From the IMG/VR virus record IMGVR_UViG_3300045988_009603: 64,000 nt of DNA, one strand, 5' to 3'. The first letter of the stretch is position 1, and each line of letters starts with the position of its first letter. The DNA comes from a virus. Taxonomy: Duplodnaviria > Heunggongvirae > Uroviricota > Caudoviricetes. Shown here piece by piece: positions 2,795 to 11,398 of this stretch. The translations under genes and the position numbers were made by a program. Below the pieces are notes generated by a model. It had not been told where the DNA came from. It saw nothing but the letters and a program-made list of their open reading frames with translations, and did not search any database.

Positions 2795-2870
2795 TGGAGA
2801 ATCCGAAGGGACTCGAACCCTTATAAACCTGTTTTGCAGACAGGCACATAGCCATTTCTGTCACGGATTC
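2795..2870 (-). tRNA. tRNA-Cys (anticodon GCA)
   Basis: anticodon stem-loop CCTGT-CTGCAAA-ACAGG; T-loop TTCGAGT; U73 discriminator; CCA encoded. Confidence 0.75.
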
Positions 2871-2874
2871 AAAT

Positions 2875-2967
2875 TGGAGGAAGATACCAGACTTGAACTG
2901 GTACACCGATTTCTCAGCTACTGGCAGTTTAGCAAACTGCTCCCTTACCTTTTAGGGTTAATCTTCC
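2875..2967 (-). tRNA. tRNA-Ser (anticodon GCU), long variable arm
   Basis: acceptor GGAAGAT/ATCTTCC; anticodon loop TGCTAAA; T-loop GTTCAAGTC; about 93 nt. Confidence 0.75.
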
Positions 2968-2968
2968 A

Positions 2969-3703
2969 TTATTTCTGTAATGCGTTCTTCATTTCTGGTG
3001 TTGCAATAGTGTCGATTACACCAGTTTTACAAGCATCATCAAACCAGTCTGGTAAGATACCTGCTAAGAACCCATTGATATTCGTTTTAAGGTACTCTGC
3101 AATAAGGGCAGTTTCTTCTTCAATCATCTGCACAACTTCATCTGCATAAGCTGTAATCTTCGAGATACCTTCATTAATCTTACTAACAGCTTGGTTAGCT
3201 AAATCAGAAATAGTATCAAGACCTTTATCAATAGCATCCTGTAAGTCGCTTAATACATCATTAACGCCATCTAGTGTACTGTTAATTGTATCCATAGCTT
3301 TTTGACCATACTCTGTAGCAACACCCATAATACCACTAAATGGTGTACAACCAACTTGCTCTCCTGCTGCACCCATAACATTAGAGTAGCCTTTTGCTAC
3401 CTGCATACGTGATGAAAACTCATCAATGGACTTTTGACCATAATCTGTCAGTGTCTTAGTAGTTGATGTAGTGCTTGTCAGACTCGTTGTAAAGCTATTA
3501 AGCAGAACTGTTGTAAGTCCAGCAGCAATAAGCTTATCCTTTATTGTGGGGTCTGTTACAGAGCTAATAGAGCTTACAAGTGATGTAGAGGCAGCTACGG
3601 TTCCACCTAGAACTGCTGCACCAGTAATAAGGGGATTAGAAAACCCTCTACCGGTTTTTAAGAGATTAAAAATCTCCTTACCTTGTTCTGTCATCTCTTT
3701 CAT
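2969..3703 (-). CDS. hypothetical protein embedded in tRNA cluster
   Basis: ORF track 2969..3766; internal start MKEMTEQ at 3703 preferred because upstream part overlaps tRNA-Phe; Thr/Ser-rich, no recognised domain. Confidence 0.5.
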   Translation of the reverse strand: MKEMTEQGKEIFNLLKTGRGFSNPLITGAAVLGGTVAASTSLVSSISSVTDPTIKDKLIAAGLTTVLLNSFTTSLTSTTSTTKTLTDYGQKSIDEFSSRMQVAKGYSNVMGAAGEQVGCTPFSGIMGVATEYGQKAMDTINSTLDGVNDVLSDLQDAIDKGLDTISDLANQAVSKINEGISKITAYADEVVQMIEEETALIAEYLKTNINGFLAGILPDWFDDACKTGVIDTIATPEMKNALQK

Positions 3704-3719
3704 TAAGCACCTTTGAAAT

Positions 3720-3795
3720 TGGTAGTCCAGTGGGATTTGAACCCTCTTCTCATGTTTTTCAGACACGCGCTTTAACCATATAAGCTACTTGGACT
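3720..3795 (-). tRNA. tRNA-Phe (anticodon GAA)
   Basis: anticodon loop CTGAAAA; T-loop TTCAAAT; A73; T-stem has one non-WC pair so boundaries +/-2. Confidence 0.6.
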
Positions 3796-3801
3796 ATAAA
3801 T

Positions 3802-3877
3802 TGGGGTGACCTACGGGATTTGAACCCGTATAGACCATGTTCACAGCATGGGTCATTACCATTTATGATAAGGCCAC
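3802..3877 (-). tRNA. tRNA-His (anticodon GUG)
   Basis: anticodon stem CCATG/CATGG, loop CTGTGAA; T-arm ACGGG-TTCAAAT-CCCGT. Confidence 0.8.
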
Positions 3878-3908
3878 ATTTAAGGACTCTCGTAAGAACC
3901 CTTAGAAG

Positions 3909-3984
3909 TGGCAGCGGCATAAGGATTTGAACCTTAATAAGACAGCTTCAGAGACTGCTGCATTGCCAGTTATGCTATACCGCT
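3909..3984 (-). tRNA. tRNA-Gln (anticodon CUG)
   Basis: standard cloverleaf, D-stem GCAT/ATGC, anticodon loop CTCTGAA. Confidence 0.65.
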
Positions 3985-3989
3985 AAATT

Positions 3990-4068
3990 TGGTACTCCAT
4001 ATCGGATTCGAACCGATACATAACACAGATTTTAAGTCTGGCCTCTCTGCCAATTGGAGTAATGGAGC
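3990..4068 (-). tRNA. tRNA with anticodon UAA (Leu isoacceptor by anticodon), short variable arm
   Basis: anticodon loop CTTAAAA; D-loop CAATTGGCAGA; A73; T-arm ATCGG-TTCGAAT-CCGAT. Confidence 0.5.
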
Positions 4069-4070
4069 AT

Positions 4071-4146
4071 TGGCGGGGGATGTTGGAATTGAACCAACTT
4101 CTTCGATTTCAAAGACCGAGGTTTTAACCTTGTAAACTAATCCCCT
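4071..4146 (-). tRNA. tRNA-Gln (anticodon UUG)
   Basis: anticodon stem TCGGT/ATCGA, loop CTTTGAA; T-arm GTTGG-TTCAATT-CCAAC. Confidence 0.6.
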
Positions 4147-4154
4147 TTAAATCT

Positions 4155-4712
4155 TTACTTCCTTAGTGGATGAATAAAGAATGCCAACATAACTCTTTCC
4201 CTTGAGAATGCTCTTTCTTCTGGGACAACACTTTTAAGTTTCCATCCAACATAAATTCTCCAGTAGAATTGTTTACCAAAGACTTTAATTGATGGGATAA
4301 AGGCGAATAACCCCCAAGCATTACTGTTCCACATTAGGAGATAACCTGTCTGATTATCTTCATGGTCAGAACTTACGTTGATATTACCTTTCCACTTAGT
4401 AACATCTTTTACATCTCTTCCTAACACATGGTAAGAGAAGTTATAAGCTTTGTTTCTCCAGAGCCATCCAACTCTCTGCAAATAGACACCAAGCTTACCA
4501 ATCTTTCTAATCTTAGCCCATCTTTTAACGTGACCTTCATCACCATCAATTGGGTTGTCATATGTCTCCATCCATCTGAATCCAAAAGGTAGATGTCCTT
4601 TCTTCTCACTATAGAATGGAACTACAAAAGGTGCTAAGATAACTGCTAAGATTGCTGCCAATGGGTCTAGCAAAGCTAGGAAAATCCATGAAGCATACTT
4701 CAAATATCTCAT
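4155..4712 (-). CDS. hypothetical membrane protein embedded in tRNA cluster
   Basis: 185 aa ORF; hydrophobic N-terminus IFLALLDPLAAILAVILAPFVVPF; Trp-rich. Confidence 0.5.
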   Translation of the reverse strand: MRYLKYASWIFLALLDPLAAILAVILAPFVVPFYSEKKGHLPFGFRWMETYDNPIDGDEGHVKRWAKIRKIGKLGVYLQRVGWLWRNKAYNFSYHVLGRDVKDVTKWKGNINVSSDHEDNQTGYLLMWNSNAWGLFAFIPSIKVFGKQFYWRIYVGWKLKSVVPEERAFSRERVMLAFFIHPLRK

Positions 4713-4731
4713 TTAAATAGCCTCTTTAAAT

Positions 4732-4807
4732 TGGCGCAGGATAAGGGATTCGAACCCCTATTAACAGCTTCGTAGACTGTTGCTCTATCCATTTGAACTA
4801 ATCCTGC
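4732..4807 (-). tRNA. tRNA-Arg (anticodon ACG)
   Basis: acceptor GCAGGAT/ATCCTGC; anticodon loop CTACGAA; T-loop TTCGAAT. Confidence 0.75.
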
Positions 4808-4812
4808 AAAAT

Positions 4813-4890
4813 TGGTGTTCCAAGACGGATTCGAACCGTCACTAGTACAAGGTTTGAGCTTGCATCCTCTGCCAATTGGGATACTGGAAC
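4813..4890 (-). tRNA. tRNA with anticodon CAA (Leu isoacceptor by anticodon), short variable arm
   Basis: anticodon stem GCAAG/CTTGT, loop CTCAAAC; D-loop CAATTGGCAGA; A73. Confidence 0.5.
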
Positions 4891-4891
4891 A

Positions 4892-4966
4892 TGGTACTCA
4901 CTAAAGGACTTGAACCTTTTTCTTCATCTTGTAAGGGTGATGTTTTACCATATAAACTAAGCGAGT
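4892..4966 (-). tRNA. tRNA-Val (anticodon UAC)
   Basis: anticodon loop CTTACAA; T-arm AAAGG-TTCAAGT-CCTTT; one C-A mismatch in anticodon stem. Confidence 0.6.
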
Positions 4967-5061
4967 ATGAAAGAGGTCTGAAGTTGTGCCGCTAACTCAA
5001 CTCCGTGGAATTTGTTACGGTCTTCAGTTGACACCAGCGGTCTTTCACTTGACCTCTGAAT
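4967..5061 (-). ncRNA. structured non-tRNA spacer (pseudoknot-like crossed helices)
   Basis: no T-loop motif; crossed complementarities CTGAAG/CTTCAG and GCCGCT/AGCGGT plus outer GAGGTC/GACCTC. Confidence 0.3.
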
Positions 5062-5138
5062 TGGTGCTGCTCACAGGACTCGAACCTGCATTTCCATCCT
5101 TACAAGGGATGTGTAATAGCCAATTATACGAAAGCAGC
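5062..5138 (-). tRNA. tRNA-Thr (anticodon UGU)
   Basis: anticodon stem CATCC/GGATG, loop CTTGTAA; T-arm GCAGG-TTCGAGT-CCTGT. Confidence 0.8.
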
Positions 5139-5139
5139 A

Positions 5140-5553
5140 TTAAACTTTTATGATACCAGCATGTACTTTTCTGTGACAGTTAGCGCACAAGACAATGCAC
5201 TTTCTGATTTCATCTTTTAATCTTTTTGTGGAGTATGAATAAAGTGATGCAGGATTCAAATCTTTCTGGGAAGGGTCTGTATGGTGTAAATCCAATGCAA
5301 CTGGTTCTTTCTCACCACATATATGACATTTGCATAAAGCTTTGTACCTTCTAGCTAGAGTCTTGTTATACTCTCTCTTGAAGTTACGAGTACTTTTAAT
5401 AGCCTCTTTCCTTTTATCATTTGCTTGATAACTCTTTGCATCACGAAGTCTTGCACAGTCTTTGCATTGACTTTGAAGACCATCTTTCTTGTTCTTATTC
5501 TTATGGAATAAGCTTTCATCTTTTGGTATTCTGCAAGTACTGCATATTTTCAT
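5140..5553 (-). CDS. HNH endonuclease embedded in tRNA cluster
   Basis: 137 aa; Cys-rich, LDLHHTDP...CANCHRKVH HNH motif. Confidence 0.75.
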   Translation of the reverse strand: MKICSTCRIPKDESLFHKNKNKKDGLQSQCKDCARLRDAKSYQANDKRKEAIKSTRNFKREYNKTLARRYKALCKCHICGEKEPVALDLHHTDPSQKDLNPASLYSYSTKRLKDEIRKCIVLCANCHRKVHAGIIKV

Positions 5554-5567
5554 ATCACACCTTAATT

Positions 5568-5642
5568 TGGAGCATCCAGAGGGAATCGAACCCTCAACCT
5601 CAGTTTGGAAGACTGTAATTTTCCCGTTTAAACTATGGATGC
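5568..5642 (-). tRNA. tRNA-Gly (anticodon UCC)
   Basis: acceptor GCATCCA/TGGATGC; anticodon loop CTTCCAA; T-loop TTCGATT. Confidence 0.7.
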
Positions 5643-5648
5643 ACTAAT

Positions 5649-5724
5649 TGGTGGAGTCACTGAGAATTGAACTCAGTTACCGAGTTTGCAAAACTCGAAT
5701 TTTAACCATATAAACTATGACCCC
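5649..5724 (-). tRNA. tRNA-Ala (anticodon UGC)
   Basis: anticodon stem CGAGT/ACTCG, loop TTTGCAA; G3-U70 pair in acceptor stem. Confidence 0.8.
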
Positions 5725-5730
5725 AATGTT

Positions 5731-5806
5731 TGGTACAGGTGGAGGGAATTGAACCCATCGTCTTACTGATTAAGAGTCAGCCGCATAACCATTTTGCTAC
5801 ACCTGC
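5731..5806 (-). tRNA. tRNA-Lys (anticodon CUU)
   Basis: anticodon loop CTCTTAA; paralogous to the UUU copy at 6957-7032; T-stem only GGG/CCC. Confidence 0.6.
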
Positions 5807-5813
5807 ATTAATT

Positions 5814-5891
5814 TGGTAGGAGACAAGGGATTCGAACCCTCAAACACCAACTTCTAAGGATGGTAGGTTTACCAATTACCGTCAATCTCCC
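5814..5891 (-). tRNA. tRNA with anticodon UAG (Leu isoacceptor by anticodon), short variable arm
   Basis: anticodon loop CTTAGAA (stem has U-U mismatch); T-arm GAGGG-TTCGAAT-CCCTT; D-loop TAATTGGTAAA. Confidence 0.45.
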
Positions 5892-5966
5892 ATTAAATCT
5901 TTTTAGAGAACTTCTAAGAACCTAAGCAACAAGGTTCCACAACAAGCTGTAATAACCTTAGAAGCC

Positions 5967-5990
5967 CTCTAAAAAGACCTAAATAGGTCT
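5967..5990 (-). terminator. internal terminator-like hairpin in tRNA operon spacer
   Basis: minus-strand AGACCUAUUUAGGUCU followed by U5. Confidence 0.45.
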
Positions 5991-6146
5991 TTGCATAGTC
6001 TTGTTTAATCCGGTGACTAGAACCTTTGGAGAGCTTGATATTATCTCTTCTCCGTGACACCTACTAGGTGCTTTATCAGTGTGTACGACAATACACGAGG
6101 GATACCAAAGCAACATCCGAATGAAGCTTGGCTTTAAATCTTATTA

Positions 6147-6236
6147 GGCGGTAAGTAAAGGAGTCGAACCCTCACCGTATCTCTACAGTGGCAACAGTTT
6201 TCAAGACTGTTTGGCTGCCATTAGCCGCTACCTACC
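6147..6236 (-). tRNA. tRNA-Ser (anticodon UGA), long variable arm
   Basis: anticodon stem ACAGT/ACTGT, loop CTTGAAA; about 90 nt; G73; 3' CC encoded, terminal A not. Confidence 0.7.
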
Positions 6237-6249
6237 CCTAATAAGACTT

Positions 6250-6332
6250 TGGCATGGGACGGAGGAGTTGAACCCCTTTGAAACGGTTTTGGAGGCCGTT
6301 GCTCATGCCTTAGAGTCTTAACATCGTCCCAC
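6250..6332 (-). tRNA. tRNA-Trp-like (anticodon CCA) with extra nucleotides between acceptor stem and D-stem
   Basis: anticodon arm ACGGC-CUCCAAA-ACCGU resembles E. coli tRNA-Trp; acceptor GTGGGAC/GTCCCAT; about 7 nt longer than canonical. Confidence 0.45.
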
Positions 6333-6474
6333 ACTATAATTCGAAGCTTACCGTATTTTCGCAACACTGTAAAGCCCCTTCTCAGATTATTTACATGTTC
6401 TGGAAAACATGAGATACAGACCACCTCCTTACACGGAGACCCGATAAGGTCGTCTAAGCAATCTGCTAACTATT

Positions 6475-6551
6475 TGGCACACCCTACAGGATTCGAACCT
6501 GTAACTAACGATTTAGAAGACCGTTGCTCTATCCAATTGAACTAAGGGTGC
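6475..6551 (-). tRNA. tRNA-Arg (anticodon UCU)
   Basis: canonical D-arm GTTC-AATTGGATA-GAGC; anticodon loop CTTCTAA. Confidence 0.8.
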
Positions 6552-6798
6552 ATTAATCTTTAAAGACTCTCTTAGAAAGCCCTTAAAGATGCCCACCTTA
6601 TTAATCATACCGTGGGCGAGTACGCCAAATTCTTTGATGAGGGATTGGAAGACCTCACTGGTGTTTAGCCTATCAAGCTACTGCCAGAAAAACATTGTCG
6701 TTTGCATTTATTTTAAATTTGCAAAATAGACGCTACGCAACGAAAACTAAGGTTACTATAAAGTGGTCACATGTTAATGTCAACAACTTTATTGAAAT

Positions 6799-6874
6799 TG
6801 GTACTGGTAGGTGGAATCGAACCACCGATGTTCCCTTATCAGGGGAGTGTTATAACCTTCTTAACTATACCAGC
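6799..6874 (-). tRNA. tRNA-Ile (anticodon GAU)
   Basis: anticodon loop CTGATAA; T-arm GGTGG-TTCGATT-CCACC. Confidence 0.8.
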
Positions 6875-6875
6875 T

Positions 6876-6952
6876 TGGAGGTTCAGATGGGAATCGAACC
6901 CACATTCATAGGGCTTATGAGACCCCTGCATTACCTTATCTGCGACTGAACC
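6876..6952 (-). tRNA. tRNA-Met (anticodon CAU; elongator Met or Ile2 not distinguishable)
   Basis: acceptor GGTTCAG/CTGAACC; anticodon loop CTCATAA. Confidence 0.7.
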
Positions 6953-6956
6953 ATAT

Positions 6957-7032
6957 TGGTAGAAGTGGAGGGATTCGAACCCATCGCCTGTCAGATTAAA
7001 AGTCTGCCGCATCACCATTCTGCTACACTTCC
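6957..7032 (-). tRNA. tRNA-Lys (anticodon UUU)
   Basis: anticodon loop CTTTTAA; same unusual T-stem as the CUU copy. Confidence 0.65.
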
Positions 7033-7179
7033 ATTAAATTATCTTTGTAGATAAGCTACCCAGACTTGCTTAAGGTCTGTAGCGATGTGCTTTGTTGGGT
7101 TTAAATCTAGAATTTACCCTTTCACCCTTTGTGGTCGCATACTCACAGGTAAGCTTAATAACTTATCTACAAAGATAAT

Positions 7180-7316
7180 TACCAGACCGTTGTTTATCAT
7201 CTTAAGTGCTACCATTACACCAACTCGACATCTGCCGAGTGAAGGAATCGAACCTTCGCCTTTTCTTTACCGGAGAAATAGATTGTTTAAGTTTTGCTGT
7301 AAACGGTCTTCTGTAA
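7180..7316 (-). ncRNA. tRNA-like element with permuted arm order, enclosed by a terminal inverted repeat
   Basis: minus strand reads terminal stem AGACCGUU, T-arm GAAGG-UUCGAUU-CCUUC, ACUCGGC, AGAU, GUCGAGU, D-arm-like GUGUAAUGGUAGCAC, closing AACGGUCU; no canonical 5'-to-3' cloverleaf. Confidence 0.3.
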
Positions 7317-7490
7317 ATTTGTTGAGCCAGACCAAGTTTTAAATTTTTTCAAAATTAAATTGGCTTGAAAATATCATACGTACTTGCTGAATTTGGTCTT
7401 CTGCTCCTTTAAAGAATACTCGTAAGAACTCTTTAAGGGAGGGGCTAAATAGCCCTCTCAAAACATCATCTTGAAATACTTATTATAATT

Positions 7491-7568
7491 TGGCGGTTAC
7501 GAAGGGATTTGAACCCTCATCATCTCCCGTGACAGGGGAGTATTTTAACCAGATTAAACTACATAACC
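7491..7568 (-). tRNA. tRNA-Asp (anticodon GUC)
   Basis: anticodon stem CTCCC/GGGAG, loop CTGTCAC; G73. Confidence 0.85.
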
Positions 7569-7574
7569 TTTATT

Positions 7575-7662
7575 TGGTGTGCCGTGTAGGAGTCGAACCT
7601 ACCGAGTCTCAATGACAAGGGATTTACAGTCCCCACCGCTACCATCTACGGGATAACGACAC
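7575..7662 (-). tRNA. tRNA-Tyr (anticodon GUA), long variable arm
   Basis: anticodon loop CTGTAAA; T-arm GTAGG-TTCGACT-CCTAC; about 88 nt. Confidence 0.8.
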
Positions 7663-7671
7663 ATTTAAATT

Positions 7672-7748
7672 TGGCGGTTAGTCAGGGATTCGAACCCTGT
7701 GCCATTCGCTTAACAGGCGACCGCACATACCTTATGTGCTTCCTAACC
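7672..7748 (-). tRNA. tRNA-Asn (anticodon GUU)
   Basis: D-stem GCAC/GTGC; anticodon loop CTGTTAA. Confidence 0.8.
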
Positions 7749-7825
7749 TTAATACATTGCCAGACCGTGTTTTTTCTTTTATCCGCAAAAAGTAGTTTGT
7801 TGCTGCATACGGTCTTCTGCAAAAT

Positions 7826-7902
7826 TGGAGGCGGGTGCAGGAGTCGAACCTGCCGATACCATGCTAATGAGACATGTGAGACGCCCTTTCTCTATACCCG
7901 CA
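7826..7902 (-). tRNA. tRNA with anticodon CAU (second Met-type; initiator or Ile2 possible)
   Basis: anticodon loop CTCATTA; T-arm GCAGG-TTCGACT-CCTGC; 1:72 mismatch. Confidence 0.55.
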
Positions 7903-7993
7903 ATTCTTAATGACCAGACCAAATATCTTCTTTGTCCGATTTATCTTCAGATGAATAAGATTAAGTTTGCTGCAATTGGTCTTCTGTCAAAAC

Positions 7994-8071
7994 TGGCGTT
8001 CCAGAAGGGATTTGAACCCTCAAATATCCACTTTGAAAGAGTGGTGACTTTACCGTTTTGTCTACTGGAAC
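7994..8071 (-). tRNA. tRNA-Glu (anticodon UUC)
   Basis: anticodon stem CCACT/AGTGG, loop CTTTCAA; acceptor GTTCCAG/CTGGAAC. Confidence 0.85.
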
Positions 8072-8078
8072 ATTAATT

Positions 8079-8155
8079 TGGTCTCTGTTGGAGGACTTGA
8101 ACCTCCGGCCTTACCGCCCCAAACGGAACGCTCTACCAAGCTGAGCTAAACAGAG
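8079..8155 (-). tRNA. tRNA-Pro (anticodon UGG)
   Basis: canonical D-arm GCTC-AGCTTGGTA-GAGC; anticodon loop TTTGGGG. Confidence 0.75.
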
Positions 8156-8181: not shown

Positions 8182-8211
8182 ACTTTAACATTATTTTTTA
8201 GTGGTTGTCAA
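8182..8211 (-). promoter_or_regulatory. putative sigma70-like promoter of tRNA operon
   Basis: minus strand TTGACA-N18-TAAAGT, A/T-rich upstream; about 25 nt upstream of tRNA-Pro 5' end. Confidence 0.45.
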
Positions 8212-8270
8212 GAACTTTTTTAAAATATTTTCAGTATCTTAGAAAAGCTCTCATTTCGTTTCTATGTAGA

Positions 8271-8311
8271 ACATATTAAAGGGTATCAAACACATTGTCA
8301 ATACCCTTTTT
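8271..8311. terminator. bidirectional terminator-like hairpin downstream of the vWA gene
   Basis: GGGTAT-N14-ATACCC flanked by T-runs on both strands. Confidence 0.45.
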
Positions 8312-8319
8312 AAAACTTT

Positions 8320-9735
8320 TTACCAGATGTAACGGTCAATCATTACTGCTTTGAGCATTACGCTGGTTGGGTCAAACTTCTCACCACCAAGCAGAGCTTT
8401 TAAAGTGGCTGGAGAGAACCCTGATACCATCGCTACACCATTATCCTTAACAGATACTTCGCAAGTACCATTACGGTTTGCTAAGTACCAGAATACTAGT
8501 TGTGGCATTTCGTACCCAGCTTTTTTGTACTTACTCTGAATTGCTTCAAAGTTTGTACGACCATTTGCACCATCAACCTGATTAAACTCCATATCAGAGA
8601 AGATAATAAGCTTACTTGGCATATCTTTCTGAGTCAAGTTGTTTCTCTTACCTACCTCAAGAATACGGTCAAAAGCTGCTTGTAAGTTAGTTGAACCATA
8701 TTCAACATGACGCATTACCTGACGATGACGGTTTCGTAAATCACCACTCAGTTCAATGAAATGAGGGTTTGTTGAATAGACCATTAACTCATCTTTAAAG
8801 CAACCTGTATTGCGTTCTGCTACATACAAGGCAAGTGATACACCAATATCAAGGGCAGTAATTGAGCCAAGATTCACCCAAGACATTGAGCTTGAAACAT
8901 CAGTCATACACAAGATGTTTTCACCTTCTGCCATCCAGTTTGGTAGTGCTTTCCACTGCTCATTAGCAACATCTGCATTACCATACTTGATAGATTTAAT
9001 CACATCGTATGGGTAAACAGCACCAGCGTTAATCTTGGCCTCACCTTTTGAGAGGGACTCGATGTAAGCTTTATAACGTTCCCCATCTTTACGGTTAAAG
9101 AGTTTTTGGTAACGTGCAGCAGCGAGTGAAGGAATCTTGCTGTAGTCAATCTTACCAAACTCATTAGCAGAGATTTTTTGCTCAACCGTATCAGACAGTG
9201 CAGATAACAGTGTGCGGTACTCTTTCTCGCTTAAGTTTGCAAACTTGCAGAAACGTTTTACAAACTGTTTGTGGCGTGGTTTTACTCGTGGCAACCACTT
9301 AGCTGCTAAACCTGCTGTTGCAGGGTCTAGTAATGCTGCTTCTAAATGTTTGAAGGCATCCGTCTCAAAGCGAGTACCTACGAAGATTTTGAAGTCATCA
9401 AAACGACCAAGTTCTGCAATCTTGTCCATAATGCGAAGAACCTGTGTAGGTTCTAAAACTTTATCTTCAATTGCTTGAAGTAAAACAGTTCGGAAAGCTT
9501 TACGCTCACCCATACCTTCTCGTACATCTCGCATATGCAGTAAAATACGAACTGCAACATCAACATCCTCACGCAAAGCTTTGTAGAACAGGTCTGGTAA
9601 GATTTCTACATTGCTACGGCTTGAGCCAGCGGCTTTGTAAAAGTCTACCAGAGCAGACATTGATGAAGTATGGTTTACAGCACCATTTTCAGTTCGACCT
9701 GCATGAAGGTGCGCATGTTTAAATAACTCGCTCAT
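8320..9735 (-). CDS. von Willebrand factor A (vWA) domain protein with alpha-helical N-terminal domain
   Basis: 471 aa; MIDAS-like DVSSSMS motif about residue 275. Confidence 0.65.
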   Translation of the reverse strand: MSELFKHAHLHAGRTENGAVNHTSSMSALVDFYKAAGSSRSNVEILPDLFYKALREDVDVAVRILLHMRDVREGMGERKAFRTVLLQAIEDKVLEPTQVLRIMDKIAELGRFDDFKIFVGTRFETDAFKHLEAALLDPATAGLAAKWLPRVKPRHKQFVKRFCKFANLSEKEYRTLLSALSDTVEQKISANEFGKIDYSKIPSLAAARYQKLFNRKDGERYKAYIESLSKGEAKINAGAVYPYDVIKSIKYGNADVANEQWKALPNWMAEGENILCMTDVSSSMSWVNLGSITALDIGVSLALYVAERNTGCFKDELMVYSTNPHFIELSGDLRNRHRQVMRHVEYGSTNLQAAFDRILEVGKRNNLTQKDMPSKLIIFSDMEFNQVDGANGRTNFEAIQSKYKKAGYEMPQLVFWYLANRNGTCEVSVKDNGVAMVSGFSPATLKALLGGEKFDPTSVMLKAVMIDRYIW

Positions 9736-9816: not shown

Positions 9817-10188
9817 TTATTTTTTGAGAGTCGCTACAGCAGAGAACGTTGGTTTGTTATCTGTCTGTTGTTGACCACCATTATCAGGAGTCTTCTTAGT
9901 GTCTGCTGCAAGTGCTTTCATCTCACCTGCTGAGTGAGTAAAGATAGTTTTACCGACCTCAATCATACTCTTGATGGTTACGTCATCTGTGTTTAACCCG
10001 AACTCTGCAAGCTTAGCCGCGTCCCTTGTAACAATCGCCTCAAACAGCTTTGCAGCGAACTCAGCAGAATTATCAATGGTCAGTTGAGCTTTTACGAGTG
10101 AGCTTTTGTTACGAGAGCCTTTTGGTCTTCCAGATGGGTTTCCAGACTGGCCTTTTTTAAACTGGCCTTTGTTTGTTCTGTTTTTCAT
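9817..10188 (-). CDS. hypothetical protein with basic Gly/Pro-rich N-terminus
   Basis: 123 aa; KGQSGNPSGRPKGSRN motif. Confidence 0.5.
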   Translation of the reverse strand: MKNRTNKGQFKKGQSGNPSGRPKGSRNKSSLVKAQLTIDNSAEFAAKLFEAIVTRDAAKLAEFGLNTDDVTIKSMIEVGKTIFTHSAGEMKALAADTKKTPDNGGQQQTDNKPTFSAVATLKK

Positions 10189-10363
10189 TGGTATGCCTCT
10201 TATAAGACCTCTTAAAAGGCTTTTAAGATAAAAGATAGATATCCAGAAAGATATCTGTTTAAATAGCCTTTTTAGAGGAACCTTTTAAGTTATCTTCTAA
10301 GTATTTATAAGCCTACACCTTGTCAAGTCCTTTGTCAACAACTTTTTTAACTTGCAATAGTTC

Positions 10364-10392
10364 TTGACTTGTTGTATGGATTACTGTACCAT
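10364..10392 (+). promoter_or_regulatory. putative promoter of plus-strand early block
   Basis: TTGACT-N17-TACCAT; weak -10. Confidence 0.3.
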
Positions 10393-10437
10393 CTTACTTA
10401 AAGCTGTAGGTCTGCCTTGTTCTACAAAGGAGACTTA

Positions 10438-10599
10438 ATGAGAAAATCAAACAACCCGAAGAAAGGTAAAAATACCAATCACTGTAAGGAATCAAAAAGG
10501 GCAGAGTTACTCTACTATTCATCCTCTGAAATTGGTCTGTACCTGTTCTTTCAAAATTACAGAAGACAAGAGGATTATCTATGTGTAGTTCCCAATTAG
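10438..10599 (+). CDS. hypothetical small basic protein
   Basis: ORF with AAGGAG SD before internal ATG. Confidence 0.35.
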   Translation: MRKSNNPKKGKNTNHCKESKRAELLYYSSSEIGLYLFFQNYRRQEDYLCVVPN

Positions 10600-10814
10600 A
10601 AATCGCAGATATTATAGATTTATATCAAACTGCAAAGAGTCATGGCTATATAACCTCAATTGGAAAGAATAGTCACTACGATGCTTTGACTGGAATGTAT
10701 TTCAGGGCAATGGCTCAATCTAGTGAACAGCACTTGATGGTTTCTTCCAGTGAGTTTACTTCGTTTCTCTATTGCAGCAAAATCATAAATCGCAGGAGAA
10801 CTGAAAAATGTTAA
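10581..10814 (+). CDS. hypothetical protein
   Basis: 77 aa ORF with AGAGGA SD; overlaps neighbours. Confidence 0.35.
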   Translation: MCSSQLEIADIIDLYQTAKSHGYITSIGKNSHYDALTGMYFRAMAQSSEQHLMVSSSEFTSFLYCSKIINRRRTEKC

Positions 10815-11398
10815 CAGTAAGTTTTAATTACAATAGTGATGGCTCTGTATCAATTAATTCACCATATGCAAATGACCTATTGAAAGAGCTAGTTAATCAG
10901 TGTGATAGAGGTCTTCACTATGTCCCAAATTCTTTCAAGCAGAAGACTATTGCTAATAACTTGATGCGTGTGACGGTTACAACATCAAATCCAAACTACG
11001 ACATTGATAGTGAAAGCCCTTATTCTTTAGTGGCTCTTGGAGAGTGCAGTCAATTTAAACTTGTATGCCACGACTCAGAAACATTTCTTAAGGTGTTTTC
11101 CAACCTTATTCACAATAATAAGTACGGGTATGTTGACGGTAGTGCAAACTTCTATCCAGCAAACTATACATGCCTATTGATTGATAATATGAGAAGTAGC
11201 AAGCAAGAACCTACAGAAATCTCATTTGATGTGAACTCTAGTCCAGACGCAGAAACAAGTAATAACTTTGATATGAGCTACGCACTATCACTTAGTAAGA
11301 AATCCGAGTTCATTGATTATGTCAATGGATTTGGTTTTAAGTTTGACGAGAACATGAATCTCAAAAAACTTAAGAACCTACTTAAGACCAAAGCTTAA
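10808..11398 (+). CDS. hypothetical protein
   Basis: 196 aa ORF with AGGAGA SD. Confidence 0.5.
   Translation: MLTVSFNYNSDGSVSINSPYANDLLKELVNQCDRGLHYVPNSFKQKTIANNLMRVTVTTSNPNYDIDSESPYSLVALGECSQFKLVCHDSETFLKVFSNLIHNNKYGYVDGSANFYPANYTCLLIDNMRSSKQEPTEISFDVNSSPDAETSNNFDMSYALSLSKKSEFIDYVNGFGFKFDENMNLKKLKNLLKTKA

Follow-up and report, generated by a model that had tools for sequence, protein, structure and literature searches.

The closest described relatives of the RNA considered here are the YrlA RNAs, in which a terminal stem that binds Ro60 encloses stem-loops designated V, T, acceptor-like, and D, and whose genes share the strand of the Ro60 gene and lie at most 4 kb from it (Chen et al. 2014, PMC4201824). 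The YrlA RNA of Mycobacterium smegmatis has an acceptor stem of 7 base pairs (bp), is cut by RNase P, and has CCA added in vivo (PMC4201824). Only genomes with an annotated TROVE protein entered that survey, in which phages were represented by mycobacteriophages and a few more (PMC4201824); a Ro60 protein with Y-RNA-like RNAs has been described for mycobacteriophages, CcrColossus, Bacillus phage G, and Thermus phage phiLo, with its Yrl1 and Yrl2 (PMC12135203). In the Felixounavirus Bas63, the structurally Ro60-like gp130, encoded directly upstream of tRNA genes, counters the Ppl defense system, and the authors of that PhageMaP study guessed that some annotated tRNAs may be Y RNAs (PMC11482910). 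We analyzed a 64,000-nucleotide (nt) stretch of Caudoviricetes DNA (IMG/VR record IMGVR_UViG_3300045988_009603; hereafter the window), in which an earlier note, made from the letters alone, had pointed to a tRNA-like element with a permuted arm order. We consider this element (minus strand, within a tRNA array) quite probably a YrlA-type Y RNA, composed of a closing module and a tRNA-shaped body and partnered with a Ro60-like protein encoded 1 kb away.

The element (127 nt; parts in Table 1) presents its stem-loops in the same order as YrlA (RF02553; PMC4201824; crystal structure 6CU1, bioRxiv 10.1101/312249): an 8-bp terminal stem encloses a hairpin, a T-arm, an acceptor-like stem, and a D-arm, in that order. 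Given the published YrlA layout, the permuted arm order is thus a known RNA architecture. Every arm that the earlier note had listed for the minus strand was found in its place, but its inventory had overlooked the hairpin upstream of the T-arm, which is either the V stem-loop in YrlA terms or the relic of an anticodon arm, and the motif UACAGCAA beside the 5′ stem strand. As in YrlA, the T- and D-loops carry tRNA-invariant nucleotides, and those of the elbow between the two loops are present (U8, A14, G18 G19, A21, G53-C61, U54 U55 C56, and A58); the Levitt pair 15-48 is unsupported, A15 being combined with C, U, or A at position 48 in the alignment of variants described below. The acceptor stem, at 7 bp, is as long as that of M. 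smegmatis YrlA. Minimum free energy (MFE) folding of the minus strand recovered the terminal stem and all four hairpins, with a stability that was unexceptional when compared to shuffles (z = −1.34). Because the MFE is not significant, the support for the structure is comparative rather than thermodynamic.

This comparative support comes from 18 distinct versions of the element in Felixounavirus, Mooglevirus, Suspvirus, and metagenomic relatives. Neither the T nor the D stem varies, and UACAGCAA is invariant in all 18. Pairing in the acceptor-like helix stands at 99.2%, and three of the seven pairs (76-93, 78-91, and 79-90) have undergone compensatory double changes, one pair occurring as U-A, A-U, and C-G. 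The forms that the helix takes in the different lineages (ACUCGGC/GUCGAGU, ACACGUU/GGCGUGU, and ACCCUUC/GAAGGGU) are all complementary; among homologous elements, the comparison that the earlier note had proposed, the acceptor pairing is kept by compensatory changes across three genera. Over the whole structure, pairing was 94.3% as compared to ∼47% in slid registers, and none of 500 shuffles reached the covariation score; the 100% pairing seen in another alignment (A4) is circular, its sequences having been chosen for pairing. The covariation of the acceptor helix rules out a chance arrangement or a decayed pair of neighboring tRNAs, and an attP-like tRNA fragment was rejected on covariation as well. 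The terminal stem is 95% paired, with one C-G to U-G change and one mismatch (phage Si3). The least conserved part is the anticodon-like loop, which reads CUGGUAA in Sf13, SUSP1, and SUSP2, CCGGUAA (hence C33) in Escherichia phage ekra (a Felixounavirus, 100% identical to the window over the query), CGGUAA, with only 6 nt, in many Felixounaviruses, and CUAUGAA in L027; in the Mordin type, the anticodon-like arm is restructured and the variable region is absent. In the versions from Mordin (L007), L251 (at 7843 and 10527), and L219 (7563), N-CCA follows the 7-nt 3′ acceptor strand, with a short spacer before the 5′ strand, which suggests that these versions are opened to expose a CCA end; other tRNA-like modules, including that of the window, have acceptor loops of 3-4 nt and no CCA.

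The proposed partner is a 471-residue protein whose gene ends ∼1.0 kb upstream of the element on the same strand, a position like that of YrlA genes, which lie within ∼4 kb of a gene for a Ro60-fold protein. Its AlphaFold model, made with 50 homologs (pLDDT 89.6, pTM 0.89), was compared to the PDB with Foldseek, and the 11 best matches were all full-length matches to Ro60/TROVE structures (1yvp, 2i91, 9l5y, and 2nvo among them), including the Ro60 of Thermus phage phiLo, Xenopus and human Ro60, and Deinococcus Rsr. Both hallmarks of Ro60 are found, i.e., a ring of helical repeats and a C-terminal von Willebrand factor A domain with a MIDAS (a site of metal ion-dependent adhesion), whose DxSxS motif (D279, S281, and S283) is invariant in the protein family. 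A phmmer search of the protein against PDB sequences returned no match. By its modeled fold, the protein is a divergent Ro60 homolog and not an annotated TROVE protein. Its ortholog in Bas63 is bas63_0130, i.e., gp130, and the locus resembles the phiLo system in that a phage-encoded Ro60-fold protein has small structured RNAs as neighbors. Pfam lists DUF2828, one of the two domains of the protein, in eukaryotes as well as viruses; a literature search found nothing linking it to phage RNA biology, its DUF2828 matches coming from plants and a tardigrade genome study. With a strand order equal to the published YrlA topology and a Ro60-fold protein encoded nearby on the same strand, the suggestion in the earlier note of a Y-RNA-like RNA or tRNA mimic is supported.

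The closing module is not confined to the element. Defining a module by a 5′ strand that begins with AG, UACAGCAA next to it, and a 3′ strand that ends in CU followed by G, we found four in the window (0.25 in shuffles), all on the minus strand within the tRNA array, and only the element (7309-7183) has a tRNA-like body. The element is thereby accompanied, as YrlA is by YrlB, by sister RNAs without the tRNA-like domain. The stem of the nearest sister, at 7399-7328 (AGACCAA/UUGGUCU), differs from that of the element at inner pairs on both strands. The three sisters, of 55-72 nt, share the closing signature AGACC..-CAGCAA-..GGUCUG and are unannotated in public records. In L178, a 148-kb phage whose protein is 48% identical, five modules directly follow the stop codon of the gene, and two of the five enclose tRNA-like bodies of unrelated sequence.

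The association between RNA and protein was assessed in 75 diverse loci encoding relatives of the protein (39-48% identity). An earlier, relaxed detector of modules gave 320 matches versus 190 on the opposite strand and 133 in shuffled sequence, and because of this high background a strict detector and a motif-free k-mer test were used instead. Strict modules numbered 73 on the strand of the gene, 4 on the opposite strand, and 3.6 in shuffles; 44 of the 75 loci had at least one, and 53 modules lay no more than 500 nt from the gene. Strict permuted tRNA-like cores occurred nine times on the strand of the gene and never on the opposite strand or in shuffles, and every core was inside a module. 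When all 7-mers within 600 nt of the Ro60-like genes were counted, free of any motif, the three with the greatest enrichment were CAGCAAA, TACAGCA, and ACAGCAA, on the strand of the gene only; CAGCAAA was present in 45 loci on that strand versus 3 on the other. A pattern match in L018 turned out to be two ordinary adjacent tRNAs, and a 16-mer scan of IMG/VR gave mostly chance matches. These sequence comparisons indicate that the pairing of such RNAs with Ro60-like proteins is widespread in phages, and many RNAs of this kind appear to lie unannotated in phages with large tRNA sets.

Several results nevertheless weigh against the assignment of the element to the YrlA type. The YrlA motif GNCGAAN0-1G is absent from the closing module of the element, where UACAGCAA stands in its place beside the stem (a GGCGAAG at the junction of the V and T hairpins is unconserved among the variants), and the proposed partner matches only Pfam DUF2828 and DUF7788 and not TROVE. 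The Rfam YrlA model, RF02553, gives no match to the element in the window even at E≤10, and among 11 loci no phage module reaches its gathering score of 69, the tRNA-like modules of other phages attaining 42.1 bits (full length, E 7e-8), 31.4, and 26.2; when Rfam aligned a related phage module to the YrlA model, CAGCAA came to lie on the segment that the model writes gCgaA. A covariance model built only from 11 cores from outside the Ounavirinae (R1) ranks the element first in the 64-kb window, at 36.3 bits and as the only match with its acceptor helix matched, but junctions between adjacent tRNAs, a class of false positive flagged by Chen et al. (PMC4201824), reach 34.4 bits, only ∼2 bits below it. 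The terminal stem has almost no covariation among orthologs. Finally, relatives lacking the paired elements, which the earlier note had named as grounds for refutation, do exist alongside the 18 variants that keep the pairing. In Salmonella phage SP116 (L010, ∼700-720), recombination between two T-arms has deleted the 3′ part of the element, so the deleted parts are dispensable for that isolate; this deletion runs from the T-arm of the element to that of tRNA-Lys, and with it went the acceptor and D portions of the element, the structured RNA that lies downstream, and the greater part of tRNA-Lys(UUU). In L177, an Ounavirinae-like contig, the element is entirely absent while its neighbors are kept, including a sister module of the 7328-7399 type. 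The element must therefore be dispensable at least under some conditions.

Because both the GNCGAA motif and the curated score failed, we class the element as a variant of the YrlA type and not as a member. By analogy, it would be YrlA-like in its working as well as in its topology and genomic context. It also differs from YrlA in sitting in a phage tRNA array and in a V hairpin that resembles an anticodon arm. The known phage Ro60 systems, in contrast, have canonical TROVE proteins, RNAs with the CGAA motif, and, in the accounts cited, no tRNA array. Whereas the PhageMaP authors proposed some annotated tRNA genes as possible Y RNAs, our candidates are intergenic modules that carry no annotation, and only one of the four is tRNA-like.

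For the binding, processing, and function of the RNA we infer the following course. Promoters just downstream of the Ro60-like gene would probably drive transcription of the RNA together with the tRNA array, and processing of the flanking tRNAs would free it. A promoter scan found two sigma-70-like matches on the minus strand at 8182-8301, between the Ro60-like gene and the first tRNA, which by sequence are candidates for transcribing the array of tRNAs and modules; they are consensus matches only, and such matches were no more numerous than in shuffles. No terminator-like site was found on the minus strand within the stretch scanned. With two promoter-like sites and no terminator-like site, the modules are probably part of a tRNA precursor. 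The closing module, with its fixed outer A-U and G-C pairs, its unpaired UACAGCAA, and its 3′ CUG, would then be bound by the Ro60-like ring protein, UACAGCAA being the proposed protein-binding determinant, and the tRNA-shaped body may offer its elbow to a tRNA-recognizing factor, as an effector-recruiting or decoy surface. As in M. smegmatis YrlA, the AGAU loop may be cut by RNase P ahead of G+1, which the length of the acceptor stem (7 bp) and the nucleotides U at −1 and G at +1 make plausible, and this opening would leave a two-piece RNA held together by two stems, with one piece ending in ACUCGGCA(CCA) and the other starting with GUCGAGU. Because Bas63 gp130 counters Ppl, the ribonucleoprotein (RNP) probably acts in RNA surveillance or anti-defense.

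Of the alternative explanations, one would dispense with the protein: the tRNA-like shape may simply recruit RNase P and 3′ nucleases to the array transcript, as do mascRNA or the punctuating tRNAs of mitochondrial transcripts. The array looks polycistronic, there is the same want of a terminator-like site on its strand, and an acceptor of 7 bp with a T-arm is a minimal RNase P substrate, the YrlA of M. smegmatis being itself cleaved by this enzyme. However, a processing signal leaves unexplained the conserved closing module (UACAGCAA, AG, and CUG), which is found likewise on inserts that are not tRNA-like, as well as the tight strand-specific clustering at Ro60-like genes even where no tRNA array is adjacent, and we judge this explanation very unlikely.

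The element might instead encode a decoding tRNA, in line with one option of the earlier note, a circularly permuted tRNA gene. Genes of this kind are known from Cyanidioschyzon merolae and its relatives; there, a bulge-helix-bulge is cut by the splicing endonuclease, and a circular intermediate yields a tRNA with a functional anticodon loop. The element shares their layout, with its 3′ half upstream of its 5′ half and a short linker joining the acceptor ends, and when 7229-7205 is rejoined with 7278-7233 the resulting 71-nt cloverleaf is read by ARAGORN as tRNA-Thr(GGU); after a cut in the acceptor loop, the halves of such a split tRNA would be joined by ligation at the other junction or would serve as a two-piece decoding tRNA. 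The canonical CUGGUAA loop of Sf13, SUSP1, and SUSP2, the N-CCA of the Mordin, L251, and L219 versions, a tRNA-Thr annotated at this place in the REP7 record, and a phage-encoded polynucleotide kinase (ekra record, 10327-11022) can all be cited in its favor. The join point of the cloverleaf, however, was picked by the analyst, and an anticodon is hardly conserved by the C33 loop of ekra, the 6-nt loops of many Felixounaviruses, the CUAUGAA of L027, or the Mordin type without its variable region; in other phages, the equivalent hairpin bears other loops. The termini form a plain 8-bp helix without the 3-nt bulges of a bulge-helix-bulge junction, and, unlike in C. merolae, the element shows neither a circular intermediate nor a functional anticodon loop that has been kept. 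No RNA ligase is among the ekra annotations, the terminal module also encloses non-tRNA inserts elsewhere in the array, and the element has been lost in SP116 and L177. The element is thus probably not a decoding tRNA, and we regard a permuted or split tRNA-Thr gene as very unlikely. A two-piece (permuted) transfer-messenger RNA (tmRNA) was rejected because pair 3-70 is C-G or A-U and not G3-U70, there is no tag frame, the D stem is full, and ARAGORN finds no tmRNA in the window; a phage tmRNA does occur in the genome of one carrier of a Ro60-like gene (L236, 11715-12132).

Just as improbable, in our estimation, is a free-standing decoy that would occupy a host tRNA-targeting defense nuclease or modification enzyme without any Ro60-like protein. 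Phage tRNA arrays are thought to counter tRNA-cleaving defenses (cited in PMC11482910), the loop changes at position 33 resemble escape mutations, and the T and D arms are strictly conserved; yet the anticodon-like loop, the likeliest target of a nuclease, is the least conserved part, and the terminal module together with its co-occurrence with a Ro60-like gene favors an RNP. A non-functional relic, in which the 3′ half of a decayed tRNA gene would adjoin the 5′ half of the next, is scarcely credible: tandem tRNA junctions are abundant in the array and score nearly as high with R1, and recombination between T-arms does occur here (SP116), but the acceptor strands have stayed complementary through double substitutions in three lineages, covariation that effectively refutes a relic, and in other phages this architecture is built again from unrelated sequences, exclusively on the strand of the Ro60-like gene.

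Table 1. Features of the window that make up or accompany the Y-RNA-like element (position 1 is the first nucleotide of the window).
Feature	Positions	Strand	Remarks
Whole Y-RNA-like module (stem, UACAGCAA, and tRNA-like body)	7183-7309	−	conserved in Felixounavirus, Mooglevirus, and Suspvirus
Terminal stem, 5′ strand AGACCGUU	7302-7309	−	outermost pairs A-U and G-C
UACAGCAA motif, predicted unpaired	7294-7301	−	directly 3′ of the 5′ stem strand
Hairpin UUUCU-CCGGUAA-AGAAA	7262-7278	−	5 bp, 7-nt loop
T-arm GAAGG-UUCGAUU-CCUUC	7241-7257	−	partial match to Rfam tRNA, 22 bits; invariant
Closed acceptor-like stem ACUCGGC/AGAU/GUCGAGU	7223-7240	−	7 bp, one G-U
Parts of the acceptor-like stem	ACUCGGC 7240-7234; AGAU loop 7233-7230; GUCGAGU 7229-7223	−	
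D-arm GUGUAAUGGUAGCAC (GUGU-AAUGGUA-GCAC)	7206-7220	−	U8 G9 before it; stem invariant
Terminal stem, 3′ strand AACGGUCU	7184-7191	−	followed by G at 7183, giving the conserved CUG end
Gene of the 471-residue Ro60-fold protein, proposed RNA partner	8320-9735	−	Pfam DUF2828 and DUF7788; PHROG 850 "RNA-binding protein"
Sister module AGACCAA-AUUCAGCAA...UUGGUCUG	7328-7399	−	no tRNA-like body; kept in L177
Sister module AGACCGU-AUGCAGCAA...ACGGUCUG	7761-7815	−	between tRNA-Met and tRNA-Asn
Sister module AGACCAA-UUGCAGCAA...UUGGUCUG	7915-7982	−	between tRNA-Glu and tRNA-Met

The array in which the modules lie comprises 26 tRNA genes on the minus strand at 2795-8155 (ARAGORN), a set that represents all amino acids except tryptophan. 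At 5139-5567, ∼430 nt separate tRNA-Thr from tRNA-Gly where the ekra record has only 7 nt, so the window is not identical to MN850644 throughout. The tRNA-like element occupies a 458-nt gap between tRNA-Asp (7491-7568) and tRNA-Lys (6957-7032), which is conserved in ∼250 phage records and in which no gene was called by ARAGORN, with or without introns, or by Rfam at gathering thresholds. None of the related GenBank records that we inspected annotates the element correctly. Two place a tRNA-Thr(GGT) over it, REP7 (L005 500-630, 131 nt) and phage ASO1B (H154); the 131-nt call in REP7 is intron-style and pairs a real 3′ half with unrelated upstream sequence, and ARAGORN allowing introns did not reproduce such a call on the window. 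Where related records have the labels "tRNA-OTHER," "pseudogene," "tRNA-His," and "tRNA-Val," these belong to the tRNA-Tyr upstream and not to the element. Several related records annotate short hypothetical open reading frames (ORFs) on the strand opposite the element; that of the window (plus strand, 7085-7342, 85 residues), antisense to the RNA and a "hypothetical protein" in, e.g., AYO145A_047 and bas63_0137/0138, contains the string GIEPSP, typical of a reverse-translated T-arm, and is probably spurious.

Immediately downstream of the element, at 7033-7182 on the minus strand, lies a conserved structured element of ∼150 nt that is closed by a perfect 19-bp stem, with compensatory changes in Sf13, Mordin, and L177, and whose inner hairpin (ACAGACC-UUAAGCAA-GUCUGG) resembles a miniature module. 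On the other side, the Ro60-like gene is directly preceded by a DUF5681 gene in the window (9817-10188, minus strand) and in two phages more distantly related, L175 (5558-5917) and L177 (5575-5946), and the DUF5681 gene may belong to the same unit. Elsewhere, Ro60-like genes have near them a T4-type RNA ligase 1 (L180, 3279-4391) and a peptidyl-tRNA hydrolase (L183, 3769-4152), neighbors that hint at a tRNA-centered biology.

The short modules also bear a resemblance outside phages. The Class I RNAs of Dictyostelium (RF01414) are ∼60 nt long; their terminal stem, of 6 bp, is conserved as a structure but not as a sequence, an unpaired motif of 11 nt stands beside its 5′ strand, the ends AAG and CUGU are conserved, and neither a mechanism nor any relative outside the dictyostelids is known (Kjellin et al. 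2021, PMC7919456). The phage closing module is alike in that its short terminal stem keeps its structure but not its sequence, (C)CUUACAGCAA is unpaired next to the 5′ strand, and the RNA starts with AG and ends with CUG, and the short phage modules, at ∼56-65 nt, are similar in length; the exact Class I 11-mer, CCUUACAGCAA, occurs in several phage modules of 58-64 nt that also begin with AG and end with CUG. The element itself measures 127 nt and holds a tRNA-like insert; it carries GUUUACAGCAA, begins with AG, and ends with CUGG. Class I RNAs, unlike the phage modules, have a promoter element of their own and a known binder that is an RNA recognition motif protein. The RF01414 model aligned at full length but below threshold to the short modules of the window (12.8, 15.0, and 17.8 bits, one of them at 7915-7981), to modules of L178 (7552-7605 and 7636-7690; 25.0 and 24.9 bits) and L181 (19.6 bits), and best to L194 at 7410-7470 (28.9 bits, E 0.0013, the sole match in its stretch); no phage module reached the gathering threshold of 41.5 bits. 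The likeness may have arisen by chance or convergence. We can only tentatively entertain, as a rather doubtful possibility, that DUF2828-type Ro60 homologs and RNAs of the form AG-stem, UACAGCAA, stem-CUG make up a large undescribed family of phage Y-RNA-like RNPs, of which Class I RNAs would be eukaryotic members bound by a DUF2828-type protein and the element a Class-I-like closing module into which a tRNA mimic was inserted. If the resemblance did reflect common descent, it would indicate a protein partner and a mechanism for a class of RNAs unexplained since 2004.

For the phages themselves, genetic evidence already shows a Ro60-like protein to counter Ppl, and the element, whose coordinates are given, is a candidate for the RNA that partners this protein, a hypothesis open to direct testing. 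The short ORFs annotated antisense to such RNAs are probably spurious, and the presence of these modules implies that the unannotated gaps of phage tRNA arrays hold a second class of structured RNAs. The association of the modules with Ro60-like genes suggests that surveys relying on TROVE annotation have greatly underestimated the frequency of Ro60/Y-RNA systems in phages.
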